Below the pieces are notes generated by a model that saw nothing but the letters and a program-made list of their open reading frames with translations, had not been told where the DNA came from and ran no database searches. From assembly GCA_030704615.1 (NCBI GenBank), contig CM060732.1:54870001-54934000 (forward strand): DNA of 64,000 nucleotides, written 5' to 3'. Numbering within the stretch: the stretch's first letter is position 1; every line of letters starts with the position of its first letter. A program made the position numbers and the translations under genes. Of this stretch, positions 771-61,433 are shown piece after piece. This stretch comes from Takakia lepidozioides (taxonomy: Eukaryota; Plantae; Bryophyta).

Positions 771-3700
771 CTATTCAACAACCGCCAATAAGTCAGCCAC
801 ACGGCAGAAGCAGATCTTGTCTGGTGTTCCCAAATCCGCCTGTATTTCAAAGACAAGAAGATGTATCATACATCAAGGAAAAGGGTGAGGGATAAAAAGA
901 GAAAAAAGAAGTTCATTTCATGTTTCTTTCACACTGTATAACAACCCCTTGCCCCAGCACAAAGTTTCAATATAGATGAATGGTTGCCTCCAGGCCTTAT
1001 GATGACTTATAGACAACCACAAGTGCTCTGATACTGAAGAGAGACAACTGCTGCACTGCCGTTAATATGCAGTCCTAAGACGAAGTTTGCCCTAGCCTTG
1101 TGGCCATAGACCCACGCCCAGTTTGGGGAACAGACAGTACCTTTGTGAGGGGCTCCAGTGGTGGCACTGCACTTAACAAAGGTACCGCAAGTGAATGTGA
1201 CTACAAAAAGGAGATTTCTTAGGAGTGTACCTCATAGGCATTAATGTCGGAGAACAGGACCTGCATTTTCAACAAAACAAGGGACACCCATAACCACAGA
1301 ATGCTTCACGTTTGACAAATAGCATCATCAGAATATGGAAAGGACCAATTATCAAGTCAGGAATGTCATACCCTGGAGGAGAGAGGAAAGTCTGGCACAA
1401 GGCTAGTGGCCTAAGTCCCTTCTCAGCTGGGATGAGGCAAGAAAGGGGGAAGAGGAACTTGGGGAACAAGGAGACCAGAATAGAGTCCATCCCTATGGCT
1501 GAAGTATGAAGAGAATGTACTCATGTAGTTCCCTGCGAACGTTGGCTTGCCATACCCTTACGGCCATCGACCCCGCAGGAAACTAACGCTCCATGAGTAT
1601 CAAGAGAGAGAGAGAGAGACTCTACATGAGTCTACTGCTGAAACTTCAGAGGTCAATGGACCTAGAGAGAACCAAGGAGAAGAGAGTCATAGCTAGATTA
1701 TTAAAAGCTAATGAGGCCAATACAGGCCACCAATCATGTGTCCTCACAGCAGAGCACAACAAAAATGTGCCTCACCACCATAACTCTTGTGCATTAGGTG
1801 TCTGGGCATTTTAATTGAGCTTGCCTCTCTGTATAAGCCCTAGCAAATTCAAGGGGAATGAGGGGGTGAGGTAATAGAGACGTGTAGAGGTGCATTTTAG
1901 TTGCTTACCTTCTGCCCCTTCTCTATGGATGCAGCATCTTTCCCCACAGACAAAACCTGCTTCAGAATCATTGTTGTTTGTTCAGGACATAGCAAGAACT
2001 CCAGCCATGAACATTAACTGTGTAGCAATCCTTTGCACATATAGGATTGTGTACTGCACAGACCCTTATATGCCTTTGACCAAAGCATCCACCTGTCAGG
2101 TTTGTTTACCAAGTGGAGGGGCAGGGAGAGAAATAGAGCTCTACTCGACACTTAGGATCTACATTGGACCCTCATGAGGTGTGAGCTCTCTCTGCTATGT
2201 AATGTGTGCAGTATGTACTGATTGGCACCAACCCACCAACACAGTAAAATACAAGAAGACGCAAGACTGTAGAAATTATACAGACTATTCAACTCAAAAC
2301 TTGTGCACATCCACATGTGCCCCCAAAGCAAACAACTTGTACAAAGAGGTGGAAAAATCCTGGTAAGGTGGTATGTCACCTCGCCAACAAGATACCGCTC
2401 AAACTTGACAGCTGACTTGGGCAGTAATACTCCTCCAGCAGATTTCTATGAGTTCACAAGACAAACATGTTTGGTGGCTGTGTGAGAAAACCATGCTTTA
2501 ACCCACAATCAAGGTGTCTCTACTCAATCATCAAGCCAAGTGCACTGTGTCTTCATACAATAGACAGATTGGCTGTGAGAAATAGCTCATGTAGGGCTCT
2601 AGTCCTGGTCGACCTCACCAAGGGCATTAGTCTAGCCTGTGAAACTTAATAGTCAGCTCTCTGCCCACGCTTGGTAAAACACTCCTGGACTTCCCCTCAA
2701 GTCTACTAAGAGCCAGAGGATGAAAGCAATAAAACTTAAGTTGATGAGCGACAAAAACCATGTGGGGATGGAAACACTGCTCTTACGGACAAGAGACACA
2801 AAGCAAAGCAAAGCAAAGCAGAAGGAAACCAGAGCACCACTCGCAAGATTTCTTTAACCAAAAGAATCCATCTTCCACTTTCCAATTTAACCCAACATGC
2901 AATTGAATTTCCATTGATACAGGACCAAGGAACACATTCATGAAATAGAAACCTACCTCGGGTAAGTCCTCAAGGCGTATCAACACTCTGTCTGCCTGGG
3001 GGACAACCTGCAGAATATTCCCTTACGAGTTCAATTAAGTATGACAGTATGAGCCTCTCAGCTCCTTGCATAATCCAATCTCTGTTGCCAGAAAAGAAGA
3101 TTGAAATCTGACAGCAACATACAGACCTTGAACAAAAACTTAAATCAACAGAATATCTACTCTGGATCAATAGCATCAACTCTTCTTCAGTCAATATAGA
3201 ATTAAACTCAACAAGCATGACATGGTAGCAGGAACTCCCTCTGCTTGTGAACATAACTGTTCAATCTTGTCTATTCAAACGACTCCATTGTATTAAAAGA
3301 AAGAGGTACTCATTGATTATCATCTATTGCATATCCTTGTGGGCCTTACCCCCTGCATACTCTCATATGTATAACCCTCTTAGAACTGGCAGTGTAGCAA
3401 AGAGAGAAGATGTACTCCTCAAATTATGATTGTCGTACGTTCTACAGACTCCATGCCTGGACAGAGGAGGGGGAGGAAGGGGCCAAGCGAATCAGAACGC
3501 AAACCCCCAAAGTCACCTGAGACTTCCTTGAGTAGTACAACATTATGAGGGAGAGAGAGAGGGAGGGTAAAAAAATTGATGGCTACTGGAGGCCCTCTGC
3601 AACTATGTCGAGAGCTATAGAAGAGCATGAAGCAAGGTTCTGGATGCTGGTTGAGGCTAAAACCAACTATTTAAAGTAAAAACAAGATGGAGAGCGAAAT

Positions 3701-4454
3701 TCGGAGACCAACCTTTGTGAGATCCACAGCAGTTGCTGAGGCACATGCAGGCGCTCTGCTGAAACGACCCATTTGCCCTGAAGGACATTTTGATCTCAGC
3801 GCCACTCCTTTACAACCTTCAGTCAAGCAGGGCATAACCCAGGTCAAGATCTCACCAGCAATGAGACTGGCACACCTGTGTCACAAGTGTATTAACTGCC
3901 TCCAATTTTCAATTTCTAGGTTGGCATATTCCAAAAATAAAGATCCCACAAGAAGAACCAACTGTTTCTGAGGTTTAAGCATAAAGAAACATACGTCTCG
4001 AATTCATCGAATTGAATTTACACAGATCCCAAAGCCGCGAATCCCAAGGCTTCCCAGTTCAGAGAGAACTTCAATGTGTACCATAGCTCTCACACACCAA
4101 CATCCTCCTATTTGCGAATTGAGTTTTTCCTACTTGATTGTATGTGCTCATAAATCCCATTGCACACAGAACGGAAACATATTACCAAATTTGCGGACAC
4201 ATAAAAGAAGGAGAAAGATACTGTATAACACTGTGCTAGAGAGCTTCGGTAACAAGCATTTCAGCTAACATGAATTAAATGACTTGTAAAGAAAGCGGAA
4301 GGAGGGACAGTACTAGACAGGGCGACTCACTGCTCTTTGATGAAAGAAGACCCCGAGAGGGCGAGAAACGACACACATTCCCCTCCTGCACTTGCGCAAG
4401 CGCCTGCACTCGCGTACCGGCCACAGCTGCCACAACTGATGTCGCCATCGCCAT
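771..4454 (-). CDS. CPN10: Chloroplast 10-kDa co-chaperonin (Cpn10), 7 exons: 4454-4418, 3816-3713, 3007-2957, 2445-2380, 1956-1909, 1260-1231, 839-771
   Basis: GT-AG spliced product MAMATSVVAAVAGCKGVALRSK...AVDLTK VVPQADRVLIRLEDLPE KSAGGVLLPKSAVKFERYLVGE VLSVGKDAASIEKGQK VLFSDINAYE ADLGTPDKICFCRVADLLAVVE* matches plant plastid Cpn10; all intron phases are consistent. The two transit-peptide exons are less certain. Confidence 0.93.
1085..1170. repeat. Dispersed intronic repeat (SINE/MITE-like), related copy at ~37945-38110
   Basis: Shared tagccttgtggccatagaccc...cagttt...tacctttgtgaggggctc in a CPN10 intron and a DAP3 intron; a related piece lies at ~1485-1580. Confidence 0.6.
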
Positions 4455-4996
4455 CACCAATCCCCCCAGCGCCTTGCAAGGAGCGAGACTCGGAAGGAGG
4501 GAATGCAAACCGTAAAGCCTAGAATGCTCCTCCAAAGAAGTCGACGTTGGTCACAAGTGGATGTTTTCAGAATATTCTATGTGGGGTTCTCTGGAGACGG
4601 GCTGGAATAGAGGGACAATTCTGATCAATCTACTGCATGCACAGATCCCTTTGAGTGGGGTTCTGGCCGCCCACAATCGGGTTGCTACTGATGATTTGTG
4701 GGGTACGATGGTGCAGGGATGTGCTTGGTGAGTGCATTGCTGCTAGGCTAGGCTCTGTGCGCTTCACAATCTTCTCGTGGTGGCGAATCGAGATGGTGGT
4801 GGTGGTCATTCTGCCGCCTGCTTGGCTCACCCATGCAGGTGCTCCAGGACGTTTACAGCTTGAATTTCATCACATTCTTTGGGTCCTGCTTCTTTGGGTC
4901 TTAATTGTTCTCGAGTTTTTATTTACTGTTGCCTCAATTTGCTTGTATCCTCTTCTGAGAAGAATTTTGGATTGCAGAGCTGGAGAACGAGAGGCC

Positions 4997-6266
4997 ATGG
5001 CAGCGCATACAGTATGTATGGCGCGCGTAGGGACTTGCTTGTCTGGCTGCTCCCGAATGGCCTTTGTCGCCTTCTTCCAGGCACGTCATCGAAGCATCTC
5101 GGAATGGCCTCGAAAGCCTCCGCCATGCTACGCTCCTTGCAAGCCTGGCCCTGTGCTGAGAGCTTCGAGAAGGTCCGGGCTTTCCACTCTATACCCTCTC
5201 AGCGTTTTCCAAACCGCAGTCAATGCATTTCAAGCGAATTGAGCGTAGTGGAGACACTGAGAGACGTTCTACAAAGGGTCCTAGTACATGTCGTGTTCTC
5301 AGTAGTGGTGTGCAATACATCATCATTGTCTAATGTCGAGTAAAGCAAGGAGGTTCAGCAGGAAGGAAAAGTAGTGGGTAGTGCATGTCTGGGTGGGCTC
5401 GGGCTACTGAGGGTACAGTTTTGGCGATGCGACACAAACTGTCATTATTTTTCGTGTTGTTTGAGTCCAGTGTCATTCTCAATGGTACGTAGACAGTTTG
5501 ATGAAGACAGGTTGGGATGGCAGGTTCGAGCTGGAGTTTGGGGTACTCTGGCTGGGAGTGCAGGGCTGCGTGTGAAGCAAGGGTACAGGATTTATGTTGC
5601 AGGGCGTCTGTCGCCAGACGCTTATGTGAACGATAACGACATTCCTCGAAAAAGTACCGAGGTTGGTGTAACTTCCTTTGTCCCTCAACCTCATCTACAT
5701 CCAAACTTCAATTTATGCTGGAGTGGGCTTAACACTTTCTAGAGGTGGAAGAATACTAGGCCCTTTCACTGTGCGTCTCTTAGCAGCCTTTGTGCAGACA
5801 CTCTCTCTTGACTTACATACAGTTCCTGTGGGACAATACTGCTGTGGGATCGTCGTTCATTTTCTTGCCCTGAATTCTTAGTGCTGTCAGAGTCACTCTA
5901 CAGTACTGAAATCGACATTCTTAGCCCGAGGTAGTTGGTCCTTGGCCAATCACAATGCCTGTAATTGTGGGATGGTTTGCAGGCCGTTGGCAGTGTAGAC
6001 ATTGGAAGTAGTTATGTGTAGGACATAAGTTGGGAGGACCTGATGGGTGGGCTAGGGTCATCTGGAAGGTGGTTGTGAGCTCACCGAGTTTTTGGAAGTC
6101 AGAGAATTTCGAGAAGGAATCCTACATCAGGTCTCCTTTGTAGAGACTGAAGCCAGCAAAGCTCATGATCTTGTAGTTTTTGCTCGCAGGTGAAGCAGAA
6201 AGTACAAAACAGATGTGGCAGGAGTTCTCAGATACGTCAGAGTGGTGGGACAACCTCTTTGATAAG
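4997..6266 (+). pseudogene. OSB: Degenerate 5' exons of an OSB (organellar ssDNA-binding) gene: transit peptide, OB-fold, first half of PDF motif
   Basis: Exon ~5524-5661 reads FELEF/WGTLAGSAGLRVKQGYRIYVAGRLSPDAY (SSB/OB-fold, one frameshift). Exon 5983-6130 has in-frame TAG and TGA. Exon 6190-6266 reads MWQEFSDTSEWWDNLFDK, an OSB PDF-motif half. Confidence 0.75.
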
Positions 6267-6547
6267 GTAGGTGTAAAGTGTTCACTAAGGAGGTTATGCG
6301 ACTGAAGCTGGTATGATGAGGTTGTGTGGCCTGGATGAGACCCCAGTCCTGTAAATCAATTTGAGTTTGCTCTCAGTGGCCAAAAAGTAGCAAAAGTGCT
6401 CCTTACTGTTGTTATCAGTAGGTTGTTTGAAAGTAGGTTATCCAAGGTCATTTGAAAGATGCTTGGAGCTCTCATAGTTGTAGCCTTGTCCATATGATAC
6501 TTTGGTTAAGCTATGGCTTCTCAGCTGTCCACTCGTGTTTGTGACAG

Positions 6548-8821
6548 CAGAGTCTAAGATCTTCAGGCTTCAAATGTTATCATACAAATGAGGTCCTTTG
6601 GATTGAGCGTTGGTCAAACCCTCCTTGGGTGAAAGCAGCACTCGCTACCATGATACAAATTCGAACACAATCTGGTAATTTAATCACCAAGAACTCCACT
6701 GGTCCTTGTGGGCATGTGAGGACACTATGCAAGGGAGGACAAGCGAGAGAGGCACTTCAGATTTTGATCAAACAAGGCATTTCAGCCGACTCCTCCACTT
6801 ACGTGTGTCTACTGCAGGAGTGCATCAAAGTTGAAGACCTTGAACTAGGAAAGCGGGTACATAACTGCATTGTTCAAAGTGAATTCCACCCAAGCATCTT
6901 TCTACTCAACAACCTTGTCCACATGTATGTCAAGTGTGGGAGCATGGCGAATGCTCGGCTAGTGTTTGACAGAATGCCTGAACGAGATGTATTTACATGG
7001 ACTACAATGATTGCTGGATATGCCAAGGGTGGGTGGGGTAGGGAGGCTTTTGAGATCTATCAGCAAATGATACAAGGAGGGGTAGCACCTGACAATGTCA
7101 CATTCATTTGTGTCCTCAAGGCGTGTGCCAGCCTACGGGCTCTGGAAAAGGGTAAGGATGTCCATGCCGACATTATGAAATCTGGAATTGCACAAGATGT
7201 CATTCTGGACACTACCCTTGTCGATATGTATGCCAAATGTGGCAGCATGAAGGATGCACGTGGAGTTTTTGACAGTATGGTTCAACGAGATGTGGTCTCA
7301 TGGAATGCGATCCTCACAGGATATGCTCAGCAAGGGTGCGGTCGGGAAGCTTTTGACATTTATGAACACATGATGGGGGAGGGAATCATGCCCAACATGG
7401 TCACGTTCATTTGCATTCTTAATGCATGTGCCAGGCTTGGAGCCCTGGAAAAGGGCAGAGAAGTGCATGCTGACATCATGAAAGCTGGAATTGGATCATA
7501 CACAAACTTGGAGAATGCCCTGGTCGACATGTATGCCAAGTGTGGGAGCATAAAGGATGCACGTCAAGTGTTTGACCATATCATTCGGCGAAATGTGGTT
7601 TCATGGAACGCAATGATCACAGGGTATGCTCAGCATGAGTGTGGTAGGGAGGCTTTGGAGATCTATGAGCATATGAGATGTGAAGGGGTGACACCTAACA
7701 TGATCTCATTCATTTCTGTTCTGAATGCATGTGCCAAAGTGGCAACGTTGGAAAAGGGCAAAGAGGTTCATGCTGACATCATCAAATCCGGGATCGTGCA
7801 AGATATAATTGTTGAGACTGCCCTTGTCGACATGTATGCCAAATGCGGGAATATGAGGGATGCACGTCAACTGTTTGACAATATGGCTCAACAAGATGTG
7901 GTTTCATGGAGTGCGATGATTGCAGGATATGCTCAGCATGGATCTAGTAGGGAGGCCTTGCGACTTTTTGGCCAAATGCAACAGGAAGGCTTCAAGCCGA
8001 ATGGTATCACCTATATGTGTGTTCTCTCTGCATGTAGCCATGTGGGTCTAGTCGATGAAGGCTGTCACTATTTTGACTCCATGAGTCGGGATTACGGCCT
8101 CAGTCCTACAGTGGAGCATTTTGGCTGCATGGTGGACCTTCTTGGCCGTGCAGGGCGATTGCATGAGGCAGAGGACTTTATTAACAACATGCCAATCGAA
8201 CCAGATGCTTTGGTGTTGAGGGCCTTGCTTGGTGCCTGCAGAGTTCATGGAAATGTTGAGGTAGCAGAACGTGCTGCAAGATGCCTTCTCAAGTGGGATC
8301 CACAGGATGCTGCAACTTATGTGCTGCTATCAAACATCTATGCTGCAGCTGGCAGATGGGAGGATACAGCAAAGATGAGAAAGATGATGCAGGACAGAGG
8401 TATCACGAAGGATCCAGGGCAGAGCTGCATTCAGGTGGATGATCAGGTGCATACATTTGTTGTAGACGACAAACTGCATCCACAAATTGAGGGAATCCAT
8501 GCCGAGCTGAAGAGATTGTCTGGGCAAATGAAGGAGGTTGGGTACGTGCCTGACACACGCTTTGTATTGCACGATGTGGAGGAGGAGCAAAGGGAGGTTT
8601 CTCTTTGCCACCATGGTGAGAAGCTTGCCATTGCGTTCGGGCTCATCAGCACAGCCCCGGGGACGCCTCTTCGTGTCATCAAGAACCTTCGGGTTTGCAA
8701 TGACTGCCACATCGCCACAAAATTCATTGCAAAGATTGTTGGGCGAGCAATTGTTGTGCGGGATGCCAACCGTTTTCACCATTTCCAAGATGGGGTTTGC
8801 TCTTGTGGGGATTACTGGTGA
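6548..8821 (+). CDS. PLS-class PPR protein with E and DYW (PG-type) deaminase domain, C-to-U organellar RNA editing factor; N-terminus is the second half of an OSB PDF motif
   Basis: Open frame from the NAGNAG acceptor (6545-6550): QSLRSSGFKCYHTNEVLWIERWSNPPWVKAAL, then L-S-P repeat triplets, E domains, PG box KDPGQSCIQV, HGEKLA, CNDCH and terminal DYW*. First in-exon ATG is at 6650. Confidence 0.95.
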   Translation, partial: QSLRSSGFKCYHTNEVLWIERWSNPPWVKAALATMIQIRTQSGNLITKNSTGPCGHVRTLCKGGQAREALQILIKQGISADSSTYVCLLQECIKVEDLELGKRVHNCIVQSEFHPSIFLLNNLVHMYVKCGSMANARLVFDRMPERDVFTWTTMIAGYAKGGWGREAFEIYQQMIQGGVAPDNVTFICVLKACASLRALEKGKDVHADIMKSGIAQDVILDTTLVDMYAKCGSMKDARGVFDSMVQRDVVSWNAILTGYAQQGCGREAFDIYEHMMGEGIMPNMVTFICILNACARLGALEKGREVHADIMKAGIGSYTNLENALVDMYAKCGSIKDARQVFDHIIRRNVVSWNAMITGYAQHECGREALEIYEHMRCEGVTPNMISFISVLNACAKVATLEKGKEVHADIIKSGIVQDIIVETALVDMYAKCGNMRDARQLFDNMAQQDVVSWSAMIAGYAQHGSSREALRLFGQMQQEGFKPNGITYMCVLSACSHVGLVDEGCHYFDSMSRDYGLSPTVEHFGCMVDLLGRAGRLHEAEDFINNMPIEPDALVLRALLGACRVHGNVEVAERAARCLLKWDPQDAATYVLLSNIYAAAGRWEDTAKMRKMMQDRGITKDPGQSCIQVDDQVHTFVVDDKLHPQIEGIHAELKRLSGQMKEVGYVPDTRFVLHDVEEEQREVSLCHHGEKLAIAFGLISTAPGTPLRVIKNLRVCNDCHIATKFIAKIVGRAIVVRDANRFHHFQDGVCSCGDYW

Positions 8822-9679: not shown

Positions 9680-10700
9680 CACGATAGGGTATTACCTACC
9701 TTGTGGATAAAAAGTAAACGTAAGAGTAAATAAAGATCGTTTAATATATTTTTATCACTTCTTTTTCTTTTTCAGAAGGGTTCCAGATTTAGTTCGTCCA
9801 TCTCCGTTCCCTCCTCACGACTTGTGGCTCCTTCCTAAAGAACTTTGTTCCCAAGTTTTACCTACATTGTGGACAAAAAATAAATGTAAGAGTAAATAAA
9901 AATCGTTTATTTTTTCATCACTTCTTTTTCTATTTCTTTTTCTATTTCAGAAGGGTTTCAGATTTAGTTCGTGCAGATTTAGTTCGTCTTGTAGCCAATG
10001 TGGAAGAGAGGGAGTGAGATGCAGGAGGAGATCCGTGGACAGTCGCAGCTGCGAGAGAAGTGAAGAGGAATCGAGGCAGAGTAGAGAGGCTTGAGGTATC
10101 ACAATTTCAGCCAAGTTCTAAATTTTGGATCCCTAGCTCTATTGTGACGCCAATTCAAGTCTGCCTCCTCCCATTGAGGGAGGATGGTGTTTGACCAGCG
10201 AAAGTGCATGTTGTTGGGAAGACTGGCCGCCTTTACCCCAAGACTGCTCGAAATCTTGGAGCACCTTTCTTCCATGCTGTTCTACTTTGTCCCAACAGCC
10301 CTCAGTGTCCCCAACTTCGGTACTTGATCCCGGCCTAGACTGGACCTTCGAAGATCTGCAAATGGAGCTGGGGGAGATTGATGCACGCTACTCAGTGTCG
10401 GTGCTTGTGACATGGGGCGATCGGCCTCTTCCCTTGAGTGCTAACGGGATATCATGCCGGGAATTATCAGGCGTAGCAAATTTTGGCAGAAAAAGTGCGA
10501 TCATCAGAATGCGAGCATGAGTATTAGTTCAGACAAAGATAGTGAGGAGGAGGAAGAAAAGGTTGTGCTTTATACAACCTGCAGTGGTGGTGATTTGTAT
10601 AAGGAACCTGTCACACCTTCGGTAAAGTGTAATTCAAGAGCTCAACAAGAAGTAGAGGCAACATGGAGGCCGTTGCTCACACGCACAAATGTTGTGGAAA
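9680..10700 (+). repeat. Composite local repeat (AT-rich promoter module + GLE1 N-terminal coding fragment); left arm of an inverted repeat
   Basis: Reverse-complement match to ~17300-18700; translates SVLDPGLDWTFEDLQMELGEIDARY...DSEEEEEKVV...WRPLLTRTNVVE. Confidence 0.8.
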
Positions 10701-10755: not shown

Positions 10756-13700
10756 TGTCGCGGCCTTTTGCCTTGAGGGCAGGGGGGGTTGGGACACAAG
10801 AGGGGCTGCCCCTGTGGTGGGGGCAGTGGCAACAATAGGTACGGGGGCCGAAGCACCCTTGAGTGCCTAAGGTACTCAAAGAGGCGGAGGCGCTCACTAG
10901 GTGGAGCCTCGCACACCGGGTGCCACGAGGGGTGGTGGTAGCTTAGTGGGTCTTAGTGGGGGTGGCATATGACTCACCATGGGGCGGAAACTTTGTGGTG
11001 GGAGTCGTGGGGAGTCTTCGGACTCACCACGGCCCAATGGGGCTGTGTGGGTGGGCCAAGACTCACCGCGACTCATCACCGGGAGTCAAGGGTTTTCGTG
11101 GTGGTTCGCCATAAAATGACTGGGTTGTTTGTGAAACCCCCGCGGACAGTCACAGAAGTATATATAGGGAGCAGTAACCCCGAGAACGGTGCGAGCCCGT
11201 TGGTGACCAAAAACTAGTGAGTAAGCGTGCGAGCCGGAAACTGACCAAGGTGTGGGGAGCTGTTCTGGACTGTCATCGACCAAAGAGAATTTTCACTTGG
11301 CCCAAATTGAGAGAGGGTCTCGTGGAGGAGTAAAGGGGGACCGTTATGTCTCGGTGAGCAGCCGAAGCTCGGGGTTGGCCCAGCGGCCAGTTTGGGAGTT
11401 AGGCGCGCACATCACAGCGAGTGACTATGACTTGAAGGGGAGCTTACCGAAGTGAAGTGCGCGACACTTGGTATCAGAGCTTAGAGTTCAGTACGCGATT
11501 GTGCTTGAAATCGGCCTCATCACGGGGTCAGGCAAGTCAAAGCGAAAGCGGAACGGCCCGAAAGATGATCATCCTAGTGAGCCCAATGGGAGCGACGTGT
11601 CACCGAAGCGGCAATTTGAGGAGGCGATTCATGCTTTTGAAAGCAAGGCCGCGCAAGAACGAGAGGAATCTGAGGAGTCGGAGCCCGAGGACCTCCCGGA
11701 GGCTCCGCCAGACCAACAGATGTCTCCCATGCCAGCAGCCTTTTGGGAAGGGTTGTTGACGCAGTTTGGCGGGACGTTGAAAGACATGTTGAAGGCTGTT
11801 AATGCCACTTCCACTAAGGCAAAGTTTAAGGTGAAGCCTAAGGAACCCGGCACCTTCGAGGGCGTCCGAAATCGTAAGGCACTCAATACCTAACTCTTGA
11901 AGCTAGAGGAGTACTTCCGGGCGGCCAAGTTGAGTGACGAGGATTGGGTGCAAGTGGCTCCCACCTATTTGAGGGGCTATGCTCAACAATGGTGTCAAAA
12001 ACGTCTTTATGACCGAGGTCCAATCCCAAAAACCTTGAGCTGGAGTGGGTTCAAGGAGCTTACGAAAAGACTGTTTGTGCTCCTCAACGCGTCTTGGCTC
12101 GCCCGGGACAAGATGAGGAATTTGAAGCAAACGGATGATATTCGGGGATATGTTCAGGCTTTCAATGTGCTGTTACTCAAAGTCGCGGACATGGCAGAAC
12201 CAGAAATGGTCTTCAACTTTGTGGCGGGACTGGCTCCATGGGCAAGGCGGAAGTTGGAGGACAAGTCACCTAAGACTTTGAACGAGGCAATTGAAATGGC
12301 TAAATGTTTCTCGGATGTCCCTAGGGGATAATTTCCGAAACTAACGTGTCGTTGTTGGTGGACACAGAAGCATCGCACTCCTTCATGACACCGGCAACGA
12401 CACGGAAGCTGGGGCTCCCGACAAATGATGTGGGGGCCTCCATTGAAGTGTGTTCTGTCAAAGGATAACCACAATTGGCGACGAGGTTGACGTTTGATGT
12501 TCCTCTTCAGCTCGGGAGTTAGGAGAGACGTGAGAATTTCACCATTTGCGAGATCGATGGAGTGGATCTCATTTTTGGGAATGACATTTTTGAGCAAATC
12601 CGGAGCAGTCATGGATGGCCGCAAGAGAGTAGTCACGCTACCGTGTGCAAATGGTGGCGAAATTTTACGAGTGTCGCAAACGCCCAACCCCGTGGGAGTG
12701 CGAATAAACCTTATGTCAGCAAGAGAGTGGGCCGTGGAGAAGCCACACGAGCCCCAGTTTTTGCTTTACGTAAGACAAGTGGGGGGAGAAGGCGATAGGG
12801 AGCCGAGCCCAGATTGGATCAAAGAGATCTTGGAGAAATACCAGGATGTGATGCTGGAGGATTTACTAAGCGGCTTGCCACCGCGAAGAGGAGTTGACCA
12901 CAAGATAGAGGTGATATCAGGATCGGAGCCGCCTACCAAAGCGCCCTACCGGTTGAGCCACAGAAAGTTGGTCGAGTTGAAAGCCCAGCTCAAGGATCTA
13001 ATGTCAAAGGGGTCTATCCGGCCGAGTAAGTCACATTACGAAGCTCCGGTGTTATTCGCAGACAAGAAGGATGGGACGTTGCGAATGTGTGTCGATTACA
13101 GGGCTTTGAATAAGGTGACCGGTACCCTTTGCCAAGGATCGACGACCTCTTCGATCGGTTGGCAGGAGCAAAATATTTCAGCCGGATCGATTTGCACTCC
13201 GGCTACCATTAAATCCGAGTGGTGGAAGGAGATGAGGGGAAGACCGCGTGCAGGACAAGACATGGTTCATATGAGTTCTTGGTGATGCCTTTTGGGCTCA
13301 CCAACGCACCTGCGACCTTTAGCACACTAATGAACAACATTTTCCAAAAGTGGTTGGATGACTTTGTGATCGTGTACATCGACGACATCTTGGTGTACTC
13401 GAAAACAAAGGAAGAGCACATGTAGCACCTCAAAATGATGTTCCAGAAATTGCGGGAAGAGAAGCTGTATGCCAAAGCTTCAAAGTGCGAATTCGGGGTC
13501 ACAAAAGTGGAGTTCCTAGGGCATGTGATTATACAGGATGGGATCAAAATAGATGAGAGAAAGGTGAGGGCGATCTTGGACTGGGATCCTCCGACTTCGG
13601 TCCCGGGAGTGCGATCCTTCCTAGGACTTGCCTCCTATTACCGAAAATATGTGAGAAATTTTGTCAAGATCGCGGGGCCGCTGTCGGACCTTCTGTGTAA

Positions 13701-16700
13701 GTCCAAGGTATGGGTATGAAACACCTTTTGTGGCCAAGCTTTTGCTGAGTTGAAGCAGCGGATGGCGAAAGCTCCGGTCCTGAAAATCCCAGAGTTCGAC
13801 CGTCCATTTGAGATTCATACAGATGCGTCAGACTTCGCAATTGGGGGTGTACTCATGTAGGATAGACGTCCAGTGGCTCACAAAAATAAGAAACTAAATG
13901 AACTGGAGCGACGGTGGCCTACGCACAAGAAAGAAATGAATGCGGTGGTACACTGCCTTGAGCTTTGGTGCCACTATGTTGGTTCCAACCCGGTGAAGGT
14001 GTTTACGGATAATGTCACGGTGAAGTATTTTGCCACATAGCCTAAGTTGTCCCCAAAACAATTTAGGTGGCAAGACACTTTGGCGGTGTTCGACGTGGAT
14101 ATCAAGTACAAACCGGGACGGGACAATGTGGTGGCCGATGCTTTAAGTAGAAAGCAGCAGCTCATGTTGGTATACAGGGGCGAGACAGCGCTCCAAAGGA
14201 AGATCCGGAAGGCGTACCGGAAGGATGAGATGGCGAAGTCCGTGATGCGGGACTTGAGGATAGGGTTAAATCGCAGTTCCATTTGCACAATGGACTGCTT
14301 CAGTACAAGCAAAAGCATCTCTACGTGCCGAATGGAGGGATCAGAGATAGTCTCTTGAAATAATGCCATAATGGCCCGCTTGCGGGCCACGGTGGAGCTA
14401 AGCGCACCGGGACACTCTTGAATAAAGAGTATTTATGGCCCAAACTGAGGGAGGAGGCCGAGGAGTATGTCAAGACATGCACTACATGCCAACAAAATCG
14501 GAGCGAGTACAAAAAACAAGTGGGGCTGTTACAACCCTTGCCGATTCCAGAGGTGTCTTGGGAAAATGTCTCGATGGATTTCATGATTACTATACCGCTG
14601 TCAAAAGGATTCAATGCAATCATGGTGGTGGTGGATAGGTTCAGTAAAATGGGCCATTTAATTCTCACTAAAGAGACGGCAACGGCACAGGAGACGAGGC
14701 GACTTTACTTCGCCCACGTCTTCAAGCATCATGGACTCCCGAAGGATATTGTCTCGGACCGTGATCCAAAGTTTACATGTAAATTTTGGAGGGCACTTTG
14801 GAAGAAGATGGGGACGAGACTCAAGATGAGTACGGCCTTCCGACCTACGACGGACGGCCAAACGGAAAGAGTGAATTTCGTGGTGAAGCAGATCTTGCGG
14901 AATTATGTGTCGGCAGACCAATCAGACTAGGTGGAGCACTTGGATGCGGCAGAGTTCTGTTATAATAACATAAAACACTCCGCAACGGGAGTTTCCCCTT
15001 TCGTATTGGTCTATGGAAAAGCACCTTTGGTGCCGACAAGTTGGGCCGCCCAGGACGTTGGAGAATCGGCAGCAGTAGCGGTGCTCGAAGAACGCAAGCG
15101 TTTGTAGAAGCTCACAAAGTACAACATTGCCAAATCTAGAAAATGGTATAAACGGCAGGCGAATCGGAAGCGGAGGGAAGTTAAGTTTGAGGCAGGCACG
15201 GAGGTCTGGTTGAACATCAAAGAATTTTCGACTACCTCCGGAAGTGTGTCCGAAGTTCGTACCTCCGTATGCGGGGCCCTTTCGCATCCGAAAGGTTATG
15301 AATGAGGATGTGTACGAATTGGAGCTGCCGGAAAATAACAAGGTGCATCCGGTATTCCACGTCTCCCTTTTGAAGCCTTACTTCAAAGATGAAGCGCGTC
15401 CGAATCGGCATCAAGTGTTGCGTCCGCCACCTGTGTTGTTGGATCATGAAAATGAACCTGAGTACGAGGTGGAGACAGTGCTTAAGTCGAGGAGGTTCAA
15501 GAATCGAGAAATGGAGTATCTTGTGAAATGGAATGGCTATCAGCAAGTGGAGGTAACTTGGGTGTGTGGGATGAAATGCATGCTTAGTCCGGCTTAGCTA
15601 GCTCAGGAATCCGATTGCAAAAACTTGTATTGTACAAGTTTTGGTATAAATGAAATGGTTTCCAAATGTTGTGTGTCTTATTTTGTTTGGAATGGTGATA
15701 CATGGTATGGTTGGCTAGTGTGTAGAATGCATGTTAGCTTACAAAAGTGGGAGAGGTAAATTGGATTAATCGTGTATTTGCGTAGTGCCAAAATCAGGTG
15801 ACTCCCATCCAAGGAGCAAGAAAACTTGCGCCTTCTTTGGGAGTTCACGTGCTAGTTCACACCTGGCGCGTGCGCGTACTATAATTGCGCTATCGAGGGG
15901 GTTGCCTTGTAGTGCGGGCTAACGCGGAAGTTACGTGCTTCCGTTCACGTACTATAATCGTGTAGCCTCGGGACAAAGTCGTAGTGCGGCTTCGGCGTGT
16001 TCCCGTACCTCAGGCCAACATTCCAAGGCGGACCCAATTGTAGTGATTGGGGCGCATGGTTAGTTCAAGGTGAACCCTTGCTCAAGGTGATGCTAAAAGT
16101 GGCATCATGAGTGGTCGCAAGCAATGTTGTTGCAGTAAGGCGATTCGATCCTCGGGGAGGATCCTTCTTTGGCCTTGAAGTAGGCCAAGAAGAGCACTGG
16201 GTGGAGCTTGAGAGGCTCCACCCTTGGCCGGGACTTGGAGGAAGTCGGCCGAACTAGCTAGTGAAGAGTTGAGTTAAGTGGGGGTTTGGTTCTTTGCCAT
16301 GGGACGCCATGGTACGGAAACAAACTCCTTGATGTGGGACGCCACAACTTGGATGTTCGTTTCTACAAATGGACCAGTCGATGAGGACATCGACTCCCTA
16401 TTGGTAGGGGTGTGTATCGCGGCCCTTTGCCTTGAGGGCAGGGGGGGTCGAGACACAAGAGGGGCTGCCCCTGTGGTGGGGGCAGTGGCAACAAATAGGT
16501 ACGGGGGCCGAAGCATCCTTGAGTGCCCAAGGCACTCAAGGAGGCGGAGGCGCTCACTCGGTAGAGCCCCGCACACCGGGTTGCGGTGGGGGTGGTTCCA
16601 CGAGGGGTGGTGGTAGCTTAGTGGGTCTTAGTGGGGGGTGGCATAGGACTCACCATGGGGCGGAAACCTTGTGGTGGAAGTCGTGGGGAGTCTTCGGACT

Positions 16701-17140
16701 CACCACGGCCCAATGGGGCTGTATGGGTGGGCCAAGACTCACCGCGACTCATCACCGGGAGTCGAGGGTTTTCGTGGTGGTTCGCCATAAAATGACTGGG
16801 TTGTTTGTGAAACCCCCGCGGACAGTCACAGAAGTATATATAGAGAGCAGTAACCCCGAGAACGGTGCAAGCCCGTTGGTGACCAAAAACTAGTGAGTAA
16901 GCGTGCGAGCCGGAAAGCGACCAAGGTGTGGGGAGCTGTTCCGGACTGCCATCGACCAAAGGGAATTTCCACTTGCCCAAATTGGGAGAGGGTCTTGTGG
17001 AGGAATAAAGGGGGACCGTTATGTCTCGGTGAGCAACTGTAGCTCTGAGTTGGCCCGGCGGCCAGTTTGGGAGTTAGAGCGCGCATCAAAGCAAGTAACT
17101 ATGACTTGAAGGGGAGCTTACCGAAGTGAGGTGCACGACA
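10756..17140 (+). mobile_element. Ty3/Gypsy chromovirus (Tcn1-like) copy A, degenerate; LTRs 10756-11466 and 16415-17140
   Basis: LTRs TGTCGCGG...GCGACA, tRNA-iMet PBS TGGTATCAGAGC at 11469-11480, gag, protease, RT (YIDD), RNase H, integrase, chromodomain (PEYEVETVL..EYLVKWNGY), PPT-like tract 16402-16414; many stops and frameshifts. Confidence 0.95.
11469..11480 (+). promoter_or_regulatory. Primer-binding site (tRNA-iMet) of chromovirus A
   Basis: TGGTATCAGAGC starts 3 nt after the 5' LTR end. Confidence 0.9.
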
Positions 17141-17199: not shown

Positions 17200-20100
17200 T
17201 CCCGTATAACTTTTTCTTTCAAGGCCTCTTCAAATGACACCCGCATTTCATGATCCTCCTGCTACACCATCATGAGGCACTCACACTCCAGCTCCAACAA
17301 CGCAGCTTCCACAACATCTGTGCGTGTGAGCAACGGCCTCCATGTTGCCTCTACTTCTTGTTGAGCTCTTGAATTACACTTTACCGGGGGTGTGATCGGT
17401 TCCTTATACAAATCACCACCATTGCAGGTTGTATAAAGCACAACCTTTTCTTCCTCCTCCTCACTATCTTCGTCTGAACTAGTACTAATGCTCACATTCT
17501 GATGGTCGCATTTTTTCTGCCAAAATTTGCTGTGCCTGATAATTCCCGGCATGATATCACGTTAGCACTCAAGGGAAGAGGCCGATCGCCCCATGTCACA
17601 AGCACCGAGTAGCGTGCATCAATCTCCCCCAGTTCCCTTTGCAGATGTTCGAGGGTCCAGTCTAGGCCGGGATCTAACACTGAAGCTGGGGACACTGAGG
17701 GCTATTGGGACAAAATAGAACAACGCGGGATGAAAGGTGCTACAAGATTTCGAGCAGTCTTGGGGCAAAGGCGGAACGAGTCTTCCCAACAACCTGCACT
17801 TTTGTTGGCCAGACACCATCCCCCCTCAATGGGAGGAGGCAGACTTGAATTGGCGTCACAAGAGAACTAGGGATCCAAGGCTGATCGCCCCATGTCACAA
17901 GCACCAAGTAGCGGGCATCAATCTCCCCCAGCTCCCTTTGCAGATCTTCGAGGGTCCAGTCCGGGCTGGGATCTAGTACCAAAGTTAGGGACACGGAGGG
18001 CTGTTGGGACAAAGTAGAACAATGCGGGCGGAAGATCCTCTAAGATTTTGAGCAATCTTGGGGCAAAGGCGGCACCAGTCTTCTCAACAATCTACACTTC
18101 GCTGGTTAGACAACATGCATTTTCGCTGGCCAAACACCATTCCCCCTCAATGTGAAGTCCCTTGGTGAGGGGGAGGAGGCAGACTTGAATTGATATCACA
18201 AGAGAGCTAGAGATCCAAAATTTAGAGTTCGGTTGAAATTGTGATACCTCAAGCCTCTCTGCTCTGCCTCACCTCTGTCCTCGATTCCTTTTCAGTTCCC
18301 TTGCAGCTACGACTTCCCACGGATCTCTTCCTACCTCTCATTCGCTGTCTTCTATTGGCTACCAGACGAACTGAATCTGGACGAACTAAATTTGGAACAC
18401 TTCTGAATAAGAAAAAGAAATAAGAAAAAAAATGATGAAAATATTAAACGATCTTTATTTACTCTTACGTTTATTTTTATCCATAAGGTAGGTAATAACT
18501 AATAACTTAGGAACAAAGTTCTTTAGGAATGAGCCATAAATCGTGATGAGGGAATAATGATGGACGAACTAAATCTGGAACCTTCCTGAAAAAAAAAATG
18601 ATGAAAATATTAAACGATCTTTATTTACTCTTACATTTATTTTTATCCACAAAGTAGGTAAAACTTGGGGGACAAAGTTCTTTAGGAAGCAGCCACGAGT
18701 TGTGAGGAGGGAACGGAGATGGACGAACTAAATCTGGACAAATTGACGGATGAGGATAGAAAACCCTAAAACTATTGCAAGATTGCTACTATGACTTCTT
18801 CTTTCAAGGCCTCTTCAAATGACACCTGCCTTTCATGATCCTCGTCCTGCACCCTCATGAGAGTCCGCTCACGCTCCAGCTCCAACAACGCAACTTCCAC
18901 AACATCTGTGCGTGTGAGCAACGGCCTCCATGTTGTCTTTGTTTCTTGTTGAGGTCTTGAATTATATTTTTCCGGGGGTGTGATAGGTTTCTTATTCAAA
19001 TCACCACCACTGCACAAGTTGTATAAAGCACAACATTTTCTTCTTCCTTGTCACTATCTTCGTCTGAATCAGTATCAAATGCATTCTGAAGGTCGCATTT
19101 TTTCTGCCAGAATTTGCTGCGGCTGATACTTCCGGGCATGAATTACACTTTTCCGGGGGTGTGATAGGTTTCTTATTCAAATCACCACCACTGCAAGTTG
19201 TATAAAGCACAATTTTTTCTTCCTCCTCGTCACTATCTTCGTCTGAATCAGTATCAAATGCATTCTGAAGGTCGCATTTTTTCTGCCAGAATTTGCTGCG
19301 GCTGATACTTCCGGGCATGAATTACACTTTTCCGGGGGTGTGATAGGTTTCTTATTCAAATCACCACCACTGCAAGTTGTATAAAGCACAATTTTTTCTT
19401 CCTCCTCGTCACTATCTTCGTCTGAATCAGTATCAAATGCATTTTGAAGGTCGCATTTTTTCTGCCAGAATTTGCTGCGGCTGATACTTCCGGGCATGAA
19501 TTACACTTTTCCGGGGGTGTGATAGGTTTCTTATTCAAATCACCACCACTGCAAGTTGTATAAAGCACAATTTTTTCTTCCTCCTCGTCACTATCTTCGT
19601 CTGAATCAGTATCAAATGCATTTTGAAGGTCGCATTTTTTCTGCCAGAATTTGCTGCGGCTGATACTTCCGGGCATGAATTACACTTTTCCGGGGGTGTG
19701 ATAGGTTTCTTATTCAAATCACCACCACTGCAAGTTGTATAAAGCACAATTTTTTCTTCCTCCTCGTCACTATCTTCGTCTATATCAGTATCAAATGTTC
19801 GCATTTTGAAGGTCGCACTTTTCCTACCAAAATTTGCTGGGGCTGATAATTCCCAGCATGATATCCCGTTAGCATTCAAGGGGGAGAGGCCAATCGCCCC
19901 ATGTCACAACCTCCGAGTAGTGGGCATCACTCTCCCCTAGCTCTCTTTGCACATCTTCGAGGGTCCAGTCTGGGCTTGGATCTAGTACCGAAGCTAAAGA
20001 CACGGAGGGTTGTTGGGACAGGGTAGAACAGATAGACTTGAATTGGCGTCACAAGAGAGCTAGGGATCCAAAATTTAGAACTTGGTTGAAATTGTGATAT

Positions 20101-21292
20101 TTCAAGCCTATCTGCTCTGCGTTACCTTTGTCCTCGATTCCTTTTCACTTCCCTCGCAACTGGGTTGGGGGGGGGGGGAGTGACTGAGCAGCAGCACGGA
20201 TCTTCTCCTGCCTCTCACTCCTTCTCTTTCATATTGTCTACTAGACGAACTAAATCTGGATGAACCAAATCTGGAACCTTTCTGAAATATAAAAAGAAAT
20301 AGAAAAAGAAGTGATAAAAATATTAAACGATCTTTATTTATTGTTACGCTTACTTTTATCCACAATATAGATAATAACTAATAACTTGGGGATACAGTTC
20401 TTTAGGAAGTAGCCACAAGTCGTGAGAGGGAACAGAGATGGATGAACTAATCTGAACGAACTAAATCTGGACGAAGATAGACAAACTAAATCTGGAACTT
20501 TTCTGAAAAAAATAAATGATGAAAATATTAAACGATCTTTATTTATTCTTACGTTTATTTTTATCCACAAGGTAGATAAAACTTGGGGGACAAAGTTCTT
20601 TAGGAAGCAGCCACGAGTCGTGAGGAGGGAACGGAGATGGACGAACTAAATCTGGACAGATTGATGGATGAGGATAGAAAACCCTAAAACTGTTGCAAGA
20701 TTGTTGCTATGACTTCTTCCTTCAAGGCCTCTTTAGATGACACCTGCCTTTCATGATCCTCGTCCTGCACCCTCATGAGAGTCTGCTCACGCTCCAGCTC
20801 CAACAACGCAGCTTCCACAACATCTGTGCGTGTGAGCACCAGCCTCCATGTTGCTTTTGTTTTTTGTTCAGGTTTTGAATTACACTTTTTTGGGGTGTGA
20901 TAGGTTCCTTATTTAAATACCGCCATTGCACAAGTTGTATAAACCACAACCTTTTCTTCCTCCTCTTCACTATCTTCGTCTGAATCAGTATCAAATGCTC
21001 GCATTCTGAAGGTCGCACTTTTTCTGCTAGAATTTGCTGCGGCTGATAATTCTGGGCATGAATTACACTTTTCCGGGGGTGTGATAGGTTTCTTATTCAA
21101 ATCACCACCACTGCAGGTCGTATAAAGCACAACCTTTTCTTCTTTCTCATCATTATCTTCGTCTGAATCAGTATCAAATGCTCACATTTTGAATGTCGCA
21201 CTTTTCCTACCAAAATTTGCTGGCGCTGATAATTCTCGGCATGATATCCCGTTAACATTCAAGGGGGGAGGCAGATCGCCCCATATCACAGC
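17200..21292 (-). repeat. Cluster of tandem/partial duplications of the GLE1 5' fragment + AT-rich promoter module
   Basis: Repeated DPxPDWTLEDLQRELGEIDARY, ATFRMRAFDTDSDEDSEEEEE and VVEAALLELERE...VSFEEALKEEV segments interleaved with aaacgatctttatttactctta/gatggacgaactaaatctgga modules. Confidence 0.85.
18958..19860. repeat. 179-bp tandem array (~5 near-identical units)
   Basis: tgaattacacttttccgggggtgtgatagg recurs at 19139, 19318, 19497 and 19676 (period 179), with a variant at 18958; two more related units at ~20877-21240. Confidence 0.92.
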
Positions 21293-21651
21293 CAATATTG
21301 GCCGGGTCTCATGTTTTGGATTTTTTTCCGGGTCCGGGTATGACATTTTCATCGAGGGTGGAGCATAGCCAGGTATGCATAATGCAAAGATTTGAGAATT
21401 CCCTTGGGTACAAGTTATCAAACAAGAGCCATTTCATGATTTGTGCCGGTTATCAATATCCCGGTTAATTGAGCTGTCGTGCGCATACATATCGCTACAC
21501 AACTACATCGCTGTCCAAAACCACACAACACATGTGCACACCACACACTAGTATACCACTAGTCCACCACTAGTCCAACCACTAGGCTACACCTAGTCAG
21601 TCACTAGGCTGCCACTATGCTGCCCACTATGGCAGTCACTAGTCCACACAA

Positions 21652-22167: not shown

Positions 22168-22427
22168 ATCGCCCCCCTAGCTGGTGCTTAGGTCCCTCTA
22201 AGTCCAGGTAGCCACAAGATGTGATAGTGACCATAGCCTCACTAAGTCCTCCACCACTATCCCTACTACACTCAAACTCGATAGATCAAGAGGTCGGGTG
22301 CAAGAGTTGCCCCATCGTTAGTCACCGTCTTGCAACCTGTGAACTTGAGCTTGGGATCTCATGTATTGACTCCTATGAGCTTGGCCTCCCATGTCTTGTT
22401 AGCTGCCTCCAGTCATGTCCACTGTCA

Positions 22428-23680
22428 CTATCCCAAGCAGTGTGGGCACAACCAATCTCCGTCAGGAACCTTCCCAAGAGGTGGTGTCAAGCATCCCATA
22501 TGCCAACCCCTTGAGCATCGATCACACACCAGCATGGTGGCTGCCCCTTTGGCAGACCCACAGAGCATGCACCTCAAACCTGCAAGTACCACTGCCAAGT
22601 TTGGGTCAACTCTGACATCGACATTAGGAAGGTGACATGACGCACAATTATGCACATGGTCCTTCCAAGTCATGCCATCCCGACCCTCCAAGATCAGGAC
22701 CCCTGAGGGCAACACCTCTCGAACCCTCAGAATAACACGCCCTGCAGTAACATCCAGAGTCGTAGGAGCAGTCTGCTGCAAATAAACATAGTCACCAGGG
22801 CTAAACCTCCGAACCCCAGGACGATATCCTCCACCACGTATAGTGGCATACCTCAACGTATCACGGTGTTGTGCAATGGCAAGGTTCTCAAAAGCCATGG
22901 GCATGACTTTCTTGAACAACTCTGCACGCTGATCACATGCACGTACCCACACGTCCGGATCGTCAAGGTTAAGGACTTGAGCAGTGTCCCTACGAATGGC
23001 TGCAGGCAAATCCGGCTCTCGGCCAAAGAGAAGGAAATATGGTGAGAAGGAGGCAAGTGATGCTTGTTTGCTGAACCTGTAGCCCATGGCTAACCAAGGA
23101 ACCTGAAGATCCCTATCTCCTAGGTGTTTCTTCTGCAAGCCATACTTGCGCAAACCCCTCTTCACCGTCTGAACAACTCTCTCTGCTAAGCCATCGGCCT
23201 CAGGATGATCCCGAGAAGTGGTGCGGTGGTCTATCAAGGCTTTATCACACAAAGCCTGAAACTCCCCCAAGAACTCTCTTGGTCCGTGAGTACCTCAGCT
23301 AGAGCACCAAATCGGCTAAGCACACGATCCAAGAATGCATACGCAGCCCCCTCACTAGCCTTGTCAGGCAATGGAACCAACTCAATCCACTTGGAGAAGT
23401 GCTCCACCATCACCAACACATATCTGTGGTGGCGCATAGTCAGTGGCAACGGTCCTGCGAAGTCAAGACTCCACCTGTAGCCCAATCCCATGATTGGTAA
23501 AGGATGCAACTGTGGTGTAGGGGCGTTGAATGAAGCACGCACCCTGTCACACACCATGCACCTAGCCACGAACTATTGCACCTCTGTATGCATACCACGC
23601 CACCAATACTGCCCCTGCAGTAAACTGTGAGTGCGTCGCACTCCAAAATGCCCCAACTCCTCATGGGCATGCCGCACTAA
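22428..23680 (-). CDS. Integrase (HHCC + DDE core) with C-terminal PHD finger (~22428-22570); frameshifted
   Basis: HEELGH...CMVC, WSLDFAGP, VLTDQ, HPEADGLAERVVQTVK, then CMLC-x11-CDRC-x4-H-x2-C-LTPPLGKVPDGDWLCPHC (C4HC3). Confidence 0.92.
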
Positions 23681-25399: not shown

Positions 25400-25839
25400 A
25401 CTGAAGGCAAAGCAATTCCTGTAAGCCCTCAGGAACCGCCGTATACGTTGTCTCTCTCCTCCGGTGACAATGGGTCCAATGTCAGGCTCCCAATTGTCCT
25501 CCGTAACTGCAACCTTAAGTCCAGTGGGCTTAGAGGTAGAGGACGCGTCCAGTGGTTGCTATGTTGCAACCTCTTGAGCAGTACTCCCTCCCTGCTCAGT
25601 CAATGACAAGGCCTCATCCTGCCCCATCATCTCATCCTTGAGGACCTCCTCAACCCGAGAAGAATCCCCAACCTCATCCATCACAGCCGCCTTGGCTGCC
25701 AACTCCCTCTGAACCTCGAGCACCTCCCACGTGTGCCATGGATGCATGCACCCCGTGGTCCTCACATGCTCGCCCCACTCACTGCCTGTACCGTCTCGGT
25801 AGGCAGAGAGACCATCGAGGGAAGTGTACTCCGCACTCT

Positions 25840-26800: not shown

Positions 26801-27199
26801 GCCACACAATAGGTGTGGTGTCCAATGGAGACAATTGAGGTGGTCCTGGTGCAATCCCCACACTCTCCTCCTCTCCTGACGGTACAAAAGCCTCCCCCAG
26901 GCTTGTTGCACCCGTCGATCAGCATCCCGCTGCAAATCCTTGCTCGTGCCCCACAATGGAGTCTGAGCAACCATGGTAGGCAACTCCGCCATACCATACA
27001 TGTCATCTGCTCTCCCGGAGGTGGTACATCCTCTGAATGAGCATTGCCCTCAAGCAACTCTCTAGGCCAACTCACTGCCGCTGTGAATGCTGCTAGTGTC
27101 GGCATCTTGCCTCGCTGGGCAACCGCAACTCTTCCTATGAACGTCACAGGAGCTGCACACGCCGCCCTCCCCTGACTGCCATGCAGGCCTATAGAAAGC

Positions 27200-61215: not shown

Positions 61216-61433
61216 TTTACCCCTCCCCCTCTCAAAAAGCCGTGTCCTCACGGTTTTACTGTTTGGATTAGCAAACCTTTGTGAGCGAGCACCCTTCTAA
61301 CGGTGAGAGTCTCGTGAAGGACTCCGTGTGCGAGCCCAAGTCCTGTCACTGGTAGACAGAGATGATTGAGCACTACCAAGAAATGTCTGACCCTCCGTTG
61401 GCTGATAACGAGGTAACCTCTCAGGCATAGGAG

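Follow-up and report, generated by a model that had tools for sequence, protein, structure and literature searches.

A spliced OSB/PPR-DYW chimeric gene in Takakia lepidozioides, likely a decaying member of a family of PDF-bearing editing factors

We analyzed a 64,000-nt stretch of the Takakia lepidozioides genome (assembly GCA_030704615.1, contig CM060732.1, positions 54,870,001 to 54,934,000 of the forward strand; hereafter the window), in which a plus-strand gene running from 4645 or earlier to 8821 joins exons of an OSB gene to the frame of a PPR-DYW editing factor. OSB proteins (Arabidopsis OSB1-4 and relatives) consist of an OB-fold and 1-4 PDF motifs. The gene is spliced, and its exons 3-5 are by homology of OSB origin. 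Proteins that carry PDF motifs before PPR repeats form a family spread over several plant lineages, and the motif is constrained in one of its subtypes. Our preferred reading, to which we give a probability a little under 0.6, is that the window gene is a spliced OSB/PPR-DYW chimera and a likely decaying member of this editing-factor family, with the PDF motif as a predicted strand clamp.

Spliced transcript and OSB-derived exons

The transcript data were contigs from two runs, X1 and X2, which come from the same organism and two studies and were guessed to be RNA. We read them as transcripts because they skip GT-AG introns and leave most intron bins empty, with zero depth in the bins 5270-5439 and 5695-6119. 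A preliminary description, made from the letters alone, had proposed that an exon at 6190-6266 splices in phase to the PPR-DYW frame. Both runs bear this out: the joint from 6266 to 6551 (GT..AG) is found in one X1 contig (38 letters on the short side) and one X2 contig (77 letters), and 6551 is the acceptor used of the tandem pair 6548/6551. Transcription does not start only downstream of 6550, since record 9 of X2 (978 nt) starts at 4645 and covers 4645-4833, 4973-5170, 5522-5659, 77 unlisted letters and 6549-6924; records 1 and 2 of X1 cover the same path in two pieces. Resolved to GT-AG borders, the model has five exons (4645-4838, 4978-5172, 5524-5661, 6190-6266 and 6551 onward), which add up to exactly the 978 nt of record 9 when counted to 6924. 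Introns 1-3 rest on the listed contig pieces and this length arithmetic, whereas the last joint can be read directly from contigs of both runs. The exon from 4645 (or earlier) to 4838 had been missed before. Both runs also carry a 10-nt insertion at 9090, in the 3' region, and a few single-base differences from the window, and therefore represent other alleles or individuals. The parts of the gene are as follows.

4645..4838, plus strand: exon 1, from X2 record 9, with a GT donor at 4839; the 5' end is the contig's reach
4978..5172, plus strand: exon 2, from contigs and the GT-AG model; coding from ATG 4997, phase 2 end
5524..5661, plus strand: exon 3, second half of the OSB OB-fold; phase 2 start, phase 0 end; spliced in X1 and X2
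5983..6130, plus strand: candidate skipped dead exon of 148 nt, fitting by phase only (0 to 1) and containing stops
6190..6266, plus strand: exon 4, N-terminal half of the PDF motif; phase 1 start; holds ATG 6213
6551..6652, plus strand: start of exon 5, coding for the C-terminal half of the PDF motif, where Ser-Gly-Phe stands in place of Pro-Asp-Phe; ATG at 6650
6653..6790, plus strand: linker and first partial repeat, likened by eye to the linker of Diphasiastrum PDF-PPR proteins
6791..8206, plus strand: PPR array of 14 PLS-type motifs of regular length (L1-S1, three P1-L1-S1 triplets, P2-L2-S2)
8207..8413, plus strand: E1 and E2 motifs, from Pfam, alignment and homologue counts
8414..8821, plus strand: DYW deaminase domain (Pfam E 3e-42), aligned to 9kfx, 7o4e and 7w86

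Exon 3 ties the locus to an OSB gene. Pfam SSB matches 5344-5742 at an E of 8e-5 and 23 bits, under the cut-off of 26; Atlas labels the OB stretch SSB (0.90), and exon 3 scores 28.3 bits on an OB profile when read across the frame break with X. Its ends match OSB intron positions and phases: in metagenome genomic OSB loci, the OB exon begins five residues ahead of the conserved Trp, in phase 2, and its end is in phase 0. An OB exon with the same boundaries has 139 nt in four of seven genomic OSB loci (L039, L045, L080, L049), two of the four being near-identical; among the other three, one is misparsed, one has 124 nt and one lacks a donor call. Exon 3, with 138 nt, is one nucleotide short, which confirms the frameshift and places the 1-nt deletion in the T run at 5537-5539. 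Over 30 residues it is 30-50% identical to seven land-plant-type OSBs (L001-L004, L006, L036, L053), compared with 37-83% among those OSBs, and was therefore probably under selection until fairly recently.

Of the broken OB exons of the preliminary description, only this one has statistical support. Frameshift-aware alignment of introns 2 and 3 gave no significant OB remnant (6-39 of 60 and 3-22 of 30 shuffles reach the score); the supposed remnants at 5173-5523 and 5983-6130 fail to beat shuffles, and the latter also has no contig depth. Word-based searches with 5344-5742 and with the first 62 residues of the long frame returned no match. A whole N-terminal OB-fold is absent from the gene, which keeps the second half only; this half contains the frameshift and is not read in the frame of exon 4.

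Joined exons 4 and 5 rebuild a degenerate PDF motif across the splice, as had been proposed: a profile built from 11 PDF motifs gives it 55.7 bits, against a shuffle maximum of 8.0 bits (964 scored of 1000 shuffles). The signature Pro-Asp-Phe is lost in the window (Ser-Gly-Phe) and intact in paralog contigs. The OSB PDF exons in L039 and L049 start in phase 1, as exon 4 does, and a PDF profile of the same kind finds a protein named OSB3-like (P0162). A wider PDF profile retrieved 1390 representatives, with an OB-fold and PDF together in 78 of the best 150. The earlier suggestion that the 5' part derives from an OSB gene and is decaying therefore holds, on the OB exon with OSB intron phases and on the PDF homology.

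The PDF motif has no Pfam model and no matching solved structure, so that it would escape PPR surveys that rely on such profiles; Atlas assigns nothing to the PDF stretch. Predicted alone, it folds into a helix, hairpin and helix (predicted local distance difference test, pLDDT, 85), with no Foldseek match at E 0.001 and a best Z of 2.8, which shows neither novelty nor kinship. Proteins P0155-P0159 hold about 7-13 tandem PDF motifs each, four of the five without an OB-fold. P0180 and P0184, OSB proteins with long tails in single-member clusters, may be merged gene models.

The long open frame (6545-8821) spans 758 codons between stops; its PPR-DYW part lacks introns, and Pfam matches PPR, E, E+ and DYW in it. 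On its P and S motifs we take the PPR code to read U, G, G, Y, Y, Y, G, A, with L positions left open. The DYW domain retains the zinc ligands and the catalytic Glu, with HxE..CxxC and the terminal DYW present. An intact PPR-DYW had been claimed; the frame is indeed open, but three conserved positions are changed. The conserved Trp of E1 (55 of 57 homologues) is Leu, HSE has become HGE (Ser in 38 and Gly in 1 of 43 homologues), and the Trp of the PG box is Cys (Trp in 41 and Cys in none of 54).

In its PLS triplets, P2-L2-S2, E1 and E2, and in a DYW domain with HxE and CxxC zinc ligands, the gene resembles the PLS-class PPR-DYW C-to-U factors (OTP86, moss PPR56, PPR 45, synthetic 9kfx). Unlike them, it has an N-terminal PDF motif, OSB-derived exons, HGE and an altered PG box, and its seen isoform has no obvious in-frame transit peptide. 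With OSB proteins it shares the PDF motif, the second half of the OB-fold and the phases of the introns that flank the OB exon and precede the PDF exon. However, its OB-fold is broken and partial, its PDF motif leads into PPR-DYW instead of the protein end, and the intron that splits this motif is absent from the flowering-plant-type genomic OSB loci examined. PPR fusions with RRM or MORF, as treated in sections of PMC13386178, likewise put an accessory nucleic-acid-binding or helper domain on organellar editing factor parts, whereas the module here is a motif that binds single-stranded DNA (ssDNA), from the DNA-maintenance machinery.

PDF-bearing PPR proteins in Takakia and other seed-free plants

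The window gene is one of many. At 80% likeness, 4250-6790 is matched by 338 X2 and 103 X1 contigs, and likeness is below 90% for 244 and 84 of them; all such paralog figures are contigs, not gene counts. Loose contig ends read an intact PDF core (57 X2 and 17 X1 contigs at one place), up to 72 contigs share the same variant, and several contain joints from the PDF motif to the PPR start. In the PDF half on exon 5, 11 variants were listed (40 of 77 places), five synonymous and none at Trp or Pro. Sequence like exons 1 and 2 is present in some paralog contigs, and in one an exon-1-like stretch is joined to an exon-4-like one, with 2-, 3- and 5-nt indels. Exon 3 is covered by contigs of the window gene only. 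Runs X3 and X4, from other organisms, gave no contigs on 4250-6790, which is no proof of absence. A deeper contig in both runs (27 and 132) covers 6225-6266 and 6584-6638 and reads two tandem PDF motifs; it may be the organism's ordinary OSB or a two-PDF PPR protein.

These paralogs bear on the event first suggested for this locus, a recent PPR-DYW retrocopy that landed in the last exon of an OSB duplicate. The PPR-DYW part without introns behind OSB exons would fit such an event, as would an OB remnant unique to the window locus, and retroposition drove PPR expansion in early land plants according to passages of PMC13386178. However, the junction recurs in dozens of paralog contigs that are 80-90% identical, four other lineages show the same architecture, and a close OSB parent was not seen. 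An A-rich tract is also lacking in the 880 nt that follow the stop: the first 10-base window with 8 A is at 9709, about 890 nt past it, although contigs reach 9486 or beyond and leave the 3' end unfixed. A single landing at this locus is thus largely contradicted by a multi-copy family in several lineages. We consider the one-off retrocopy highly improbable here; it may still describe how the family was founded.

Outside Takakia, 27 of the 120 PPR homologues listed (437 found) carry 1-3 PDF motifs before the repeats, a share that is inflated because the query held half the motif. These 27 rows comprise 22 from Diphasiastrum, one each from Calypogeia and Ceratodon, two clusters with Sphagnum members and one weak row without a source name, two of the rows being isoforms of one gene. 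Among metagenome loci, PDF and PPR share one uninterrupted frame in 6 of 80, and 6 of the best 150 PDF-profile representatives are PDF-PPR proteins, with Adiantum among their sources and five of the six lacking a DYW domain. Source organisms are thus Diphasiastrum, Calypogeia, Ceratodon, Sphagnum and Adiantum. From its sequences, PDF-PPR is a multi-copy family in T. lepidozioides and across seed-free plants. Two Sphagnum-type gene calls begin where intron 4 of the window gene lies, which suggests that this intron is shared with Sphagnum-type genes. In a full-length structure model of P0057, residues 1-102 have a pLDDT under 50, a confidence too low to place PDF on PPR.

Across eight PDF-PPR metagenome loci of one subtype, different from the window's and with non-independent pairs, the ratio of nonsynonymous to synonymous rates on the PDF motif is 0.19 (dN 0.16, dS 0.83; 54 codons), and by this measure the motif in that subtype is under purifying selection. 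The Trp, Pro, Asp and Phe of the motif are near-invariant in moss, liverwort, lycophyte and fern fusions. Both results speak against a roleless PDF motif, by which PPR copies would have captured OSB 5' ends for promoter and transit peptide only, as does the retention of PDF while the OB-fold was lost. The lost signature of the window copy, close relatives without the motif and several database models that start downstream of it would agree with such a passenger, which we nevertheless hold to be quite improbable.

The history of the module was followed in a tree of 42 rows over the P2-E2 region, drawn from a 122-row quick tree. It leaves out a 9-row clade read as truncated proteins, a single long branch, most of the redundant rows and three Diphasiastrum rows without PDF. 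A single clade of PDF-bearing PPR backbones was rejected (approximately unbiased test, p-AU 2e-49), and the PDF label changes four times, three of them forced; PDF is thus carried on at least three PPR backbones. The groups are a Sphagnum type that includes one Diphasiastrum protein, a Diphasiastrum expansion, and Ceratodon P0053 amid PDF-less relatives. P0053 has the N-terminus and 69% of the PPR-DYW part in common with Funaria PPR 45 and differs by an insert of about 130 residues, which contains the PDF motif and is absent from Funaria PPR 45; the PPR 45 relatives of Funaria and Physcomitrium have no PDF. Because of these tree changes and the P0053 insert, PDF behaves as a cassette that was gained, swapped or lost repeatedly, and change counts cannot tell gain from swap from loss. 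In a PDF tree (64 columns) the window motif groups weakly with PPR-adjacent Diphasiastrum PDFs (86/83), and it is 49-52% identical to PDFs of those fusions versus 26-44% to OSB PDFs.

That the window PDF is of the PPR-fusion type and not the moss OSB type is one ground for a secondary swap, in which a PDF-PPR-DYW member and an OSB duplicate recombined or were converted in their PDF exons, so that the OB exon was added later and never functioned in the fusion. The coverage of exon 3 by the window gene's contigs only and the movement of PDF between PPR backbones fit as well. On the other side, neither X1 nor X2 has a transcript contig of a close OSB parent matching exon 3 at 80% or more, contig absence being weak evidence, and the exon-1- and exon-2-like sequence of paralog contigs fits descent from one OSB-like layout. 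We regard the swap as rather unlikely.

In the family history that we prefer, the fusion of an OSB gene with a PPR-DYW frame would predate the expansion of the family in this lineage, and the OB-fold would afterwards have been lost or skipped, the window copy still splicing one OB exon. The PDF module is tied to an OSB gene because of this OB remnant, and the locus adds a direct OSB link through an OB exon at ancestral intron positions. The intact OB+PDF+PPR+DYW ancestor of the preliminary description is putative.

Likely decay of the window copy and predicted role of the PDF motif

Exon 1 is probably mostly 5' leader and holds upstream ATGs at 4691, 4708, 4719, 4793 and 4833. The exon 2 product from ATG 4997 is basic, Ser/Ala-rich and transit-peptide-like (6 R/K and 1 D/E in the first 40 residues) and likely represents the old OSB targeting peptide. 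The preliminary description had the PPR-DYW part perhaps take over this peptide. In the seen isoform, however, the frame from ATG 4997 is out of frame with PPR-DYW and stops in exon 3 after 75 residues; from ATG 4833 or 5014 the OB frame is read but meets a stop where exon 5 begins. PPR-DYW is first reached in frame from ATG 6213 (774 residues), which 13 ATGs precede and which gives an acidic N-terminus; the next in-frame start, ATG 6650, gives 723 residues. By composition, with no predictor used, the seen isoform has no obvious transit peptide in frame. The full fusion protein cannot be made from the seen mRNA as read here. Skipping of exon 4 would restore the long frame, with 869 residues from ATG 4833, and so would skipping of exons 2-3, with 831 residues from ATG 4691; no such isoform of this copy is among the X1 and X2 contigs.

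Because of the 13 upstream ATGs and the lack of an obvious in-frame transit peptide, together with the lost PDF signature and the three unusual substitutions in E1 and DYW, we judge this copy to be likely decaying, not proven dead, and its product likely to contribute little.

PPR arrays bind RNA with the N-terminus toward the 5' side, and an N-terminal PDF would therefore meet the strand upstream of the recognized site. The OB-fold of AtOSB1 does not bind DNA. We propose that intact members carry a transit peptide followed by 1-3 PDF motifs, that PDF would grip the single strand 5' of the PPR-read site independent of sequence, raising occupancy or keeping the RNA open, and that a DYW domain, own or borrowed, would deaminate C to U. 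PDF in intact members is likely a sequence-independent clamp on single-stranded RNA, which we favor over its main rival, nucleoid tethering. In that rival, PDF holds the editing factor on organellar ssDNA, in a transcription bubble or R-loop, where nascent RNA is edited or processed; in the extreme form DYW acts on ssDNA. It draws on ssDNA as the sole measured ligand of PDF motifs and on up to three tandem PDFs, as in OSBs. Against it stand the many PDF-PPR proteins without a DYW domain (the five of six mentioned above), the PDF-less PPR 45 relatives of Funaria and Physcomitrium, and the established reading of RNA by PPR arrays, and we find it improbable. A broader proposal, that PPR factors were repeatedly armed with the OSB module in seed-free plants, that this locus is the relic of a recently selected full-length OB+PDF+PPR+DYW protein and that the family docks on nucleoid ssDNA at transcription bubbles, is offered as tentative and unlikely.

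Several results weigh against the clamp-bearing family with a decaying copy in the window. Available portions of papers on PDF motifs report ssDNA binding only, which makes RNA binding a prediction. An OB profile over 194 targets matches the window alone, and Pfam SSB is found in none of seven PDF-PPR fusions. A search for the SSB+PDF+PPR+DYW architecture had been suggested; OB+PDF+PPR proteins, with or without DYW, number none among the best 150 PDF-profile matches, and the founder is unobserved. The PPR part of the window gene stays unplaced in the 42-row tree and does not group with Diphasiastrum PDF-PPRs, so that its lineage by PPR sequence reads only as a seed-free-plant-like PPR family. 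The measured constraint, as noted, belongs to another subtype, and the sample of homologues is biased. As to decay, the 14 PPR motifs are of regular length with canonical code residues, and the change S893A in OTP86, at the Ser of HSE, had only a minor effect according to part of PMC13324415; with the in-frame skipping isoforms, these points imply that the window copy may still work.

The PDF-PPR family is apparently undescribed. The fusion was not found in the literature searched, where supplementary domain tables (PMC13386178) or subscription papers could mention it; the main text of PMC13386178, which in 2026 surveyed 364 genomes for editing factors, is without OSB, SSB or PDF. This analysis adds the spliced transcript, an OB exon bounded as in OSB genes, the spread across several PPR backbones and the PPR 45 pair. 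Through the fusions, the maintenance of organellar DNA is connected to RNA editing. MORF helpers are confined to seed plants according to the same paper, and the fusions suggest a way in which editing may work without them in those seed-free plants that have very many editing sites. The PPR 45 pair, Ceratodon versus Funaria/Physcomitrium, is a natural test with and without PDF. PPR-DYW editing can be rebuilt in E. coli, as described in part of PMC10482289, and the 55-residue clamp could serve designer PPR editors.

Neighboring genes and repeats

Upstream, the chimeric gene stands head to head with a chaperonin-10-like gene on the minus strand (about 2400-4512), with about 130 nt between contig ends. 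The chaperonin match has an E of 0.015 over 23 residues, and an X2 contig covers 4329-4512. A second chaperonin-10-like copy is suggested by an X1 contig at 4424-4504 that is deeper and diverged. The stretch between the two genes is likely a shared promoter.

4450..4644, no strand assigned: intergenic stretch between the chimeric gene and the divergent chaperonin-10-like gene, from X2 contig ends

Long frames at 61248-62052 were rejected as genes, being artefacts beside a run of N (assembly gap) from about 61433. A degenerate Gypsy-like retroelement lies on the minus strand at about 22400-28700, with a PHD finger at its end; its protease-like stretch and its reverse transcriptase-RNase H-integrase part are separated by a C-5 cytosine methylase (25765-26682, E 3e-13). 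Methylase-carrying retrotransposons have been described in Symbiodinium and Klebsormidium (in part of PMC5890265). A chromodomain-bearing long terminal repeat (LTR) retrotransposon is present in two copies of opposite orientation (10758-17140 and 49862-56973), about 89-92% alike. A 560-codon minus-strand frame with RNase H (47919-49601, E 1e-12) probably represents the terminal part of a non-LTR element. Units of about 180 nt form an array at 17200-21300 and are related to sequence near 9700-10700; another array, of short-period repeats, lies apart from it at 30420-31190.

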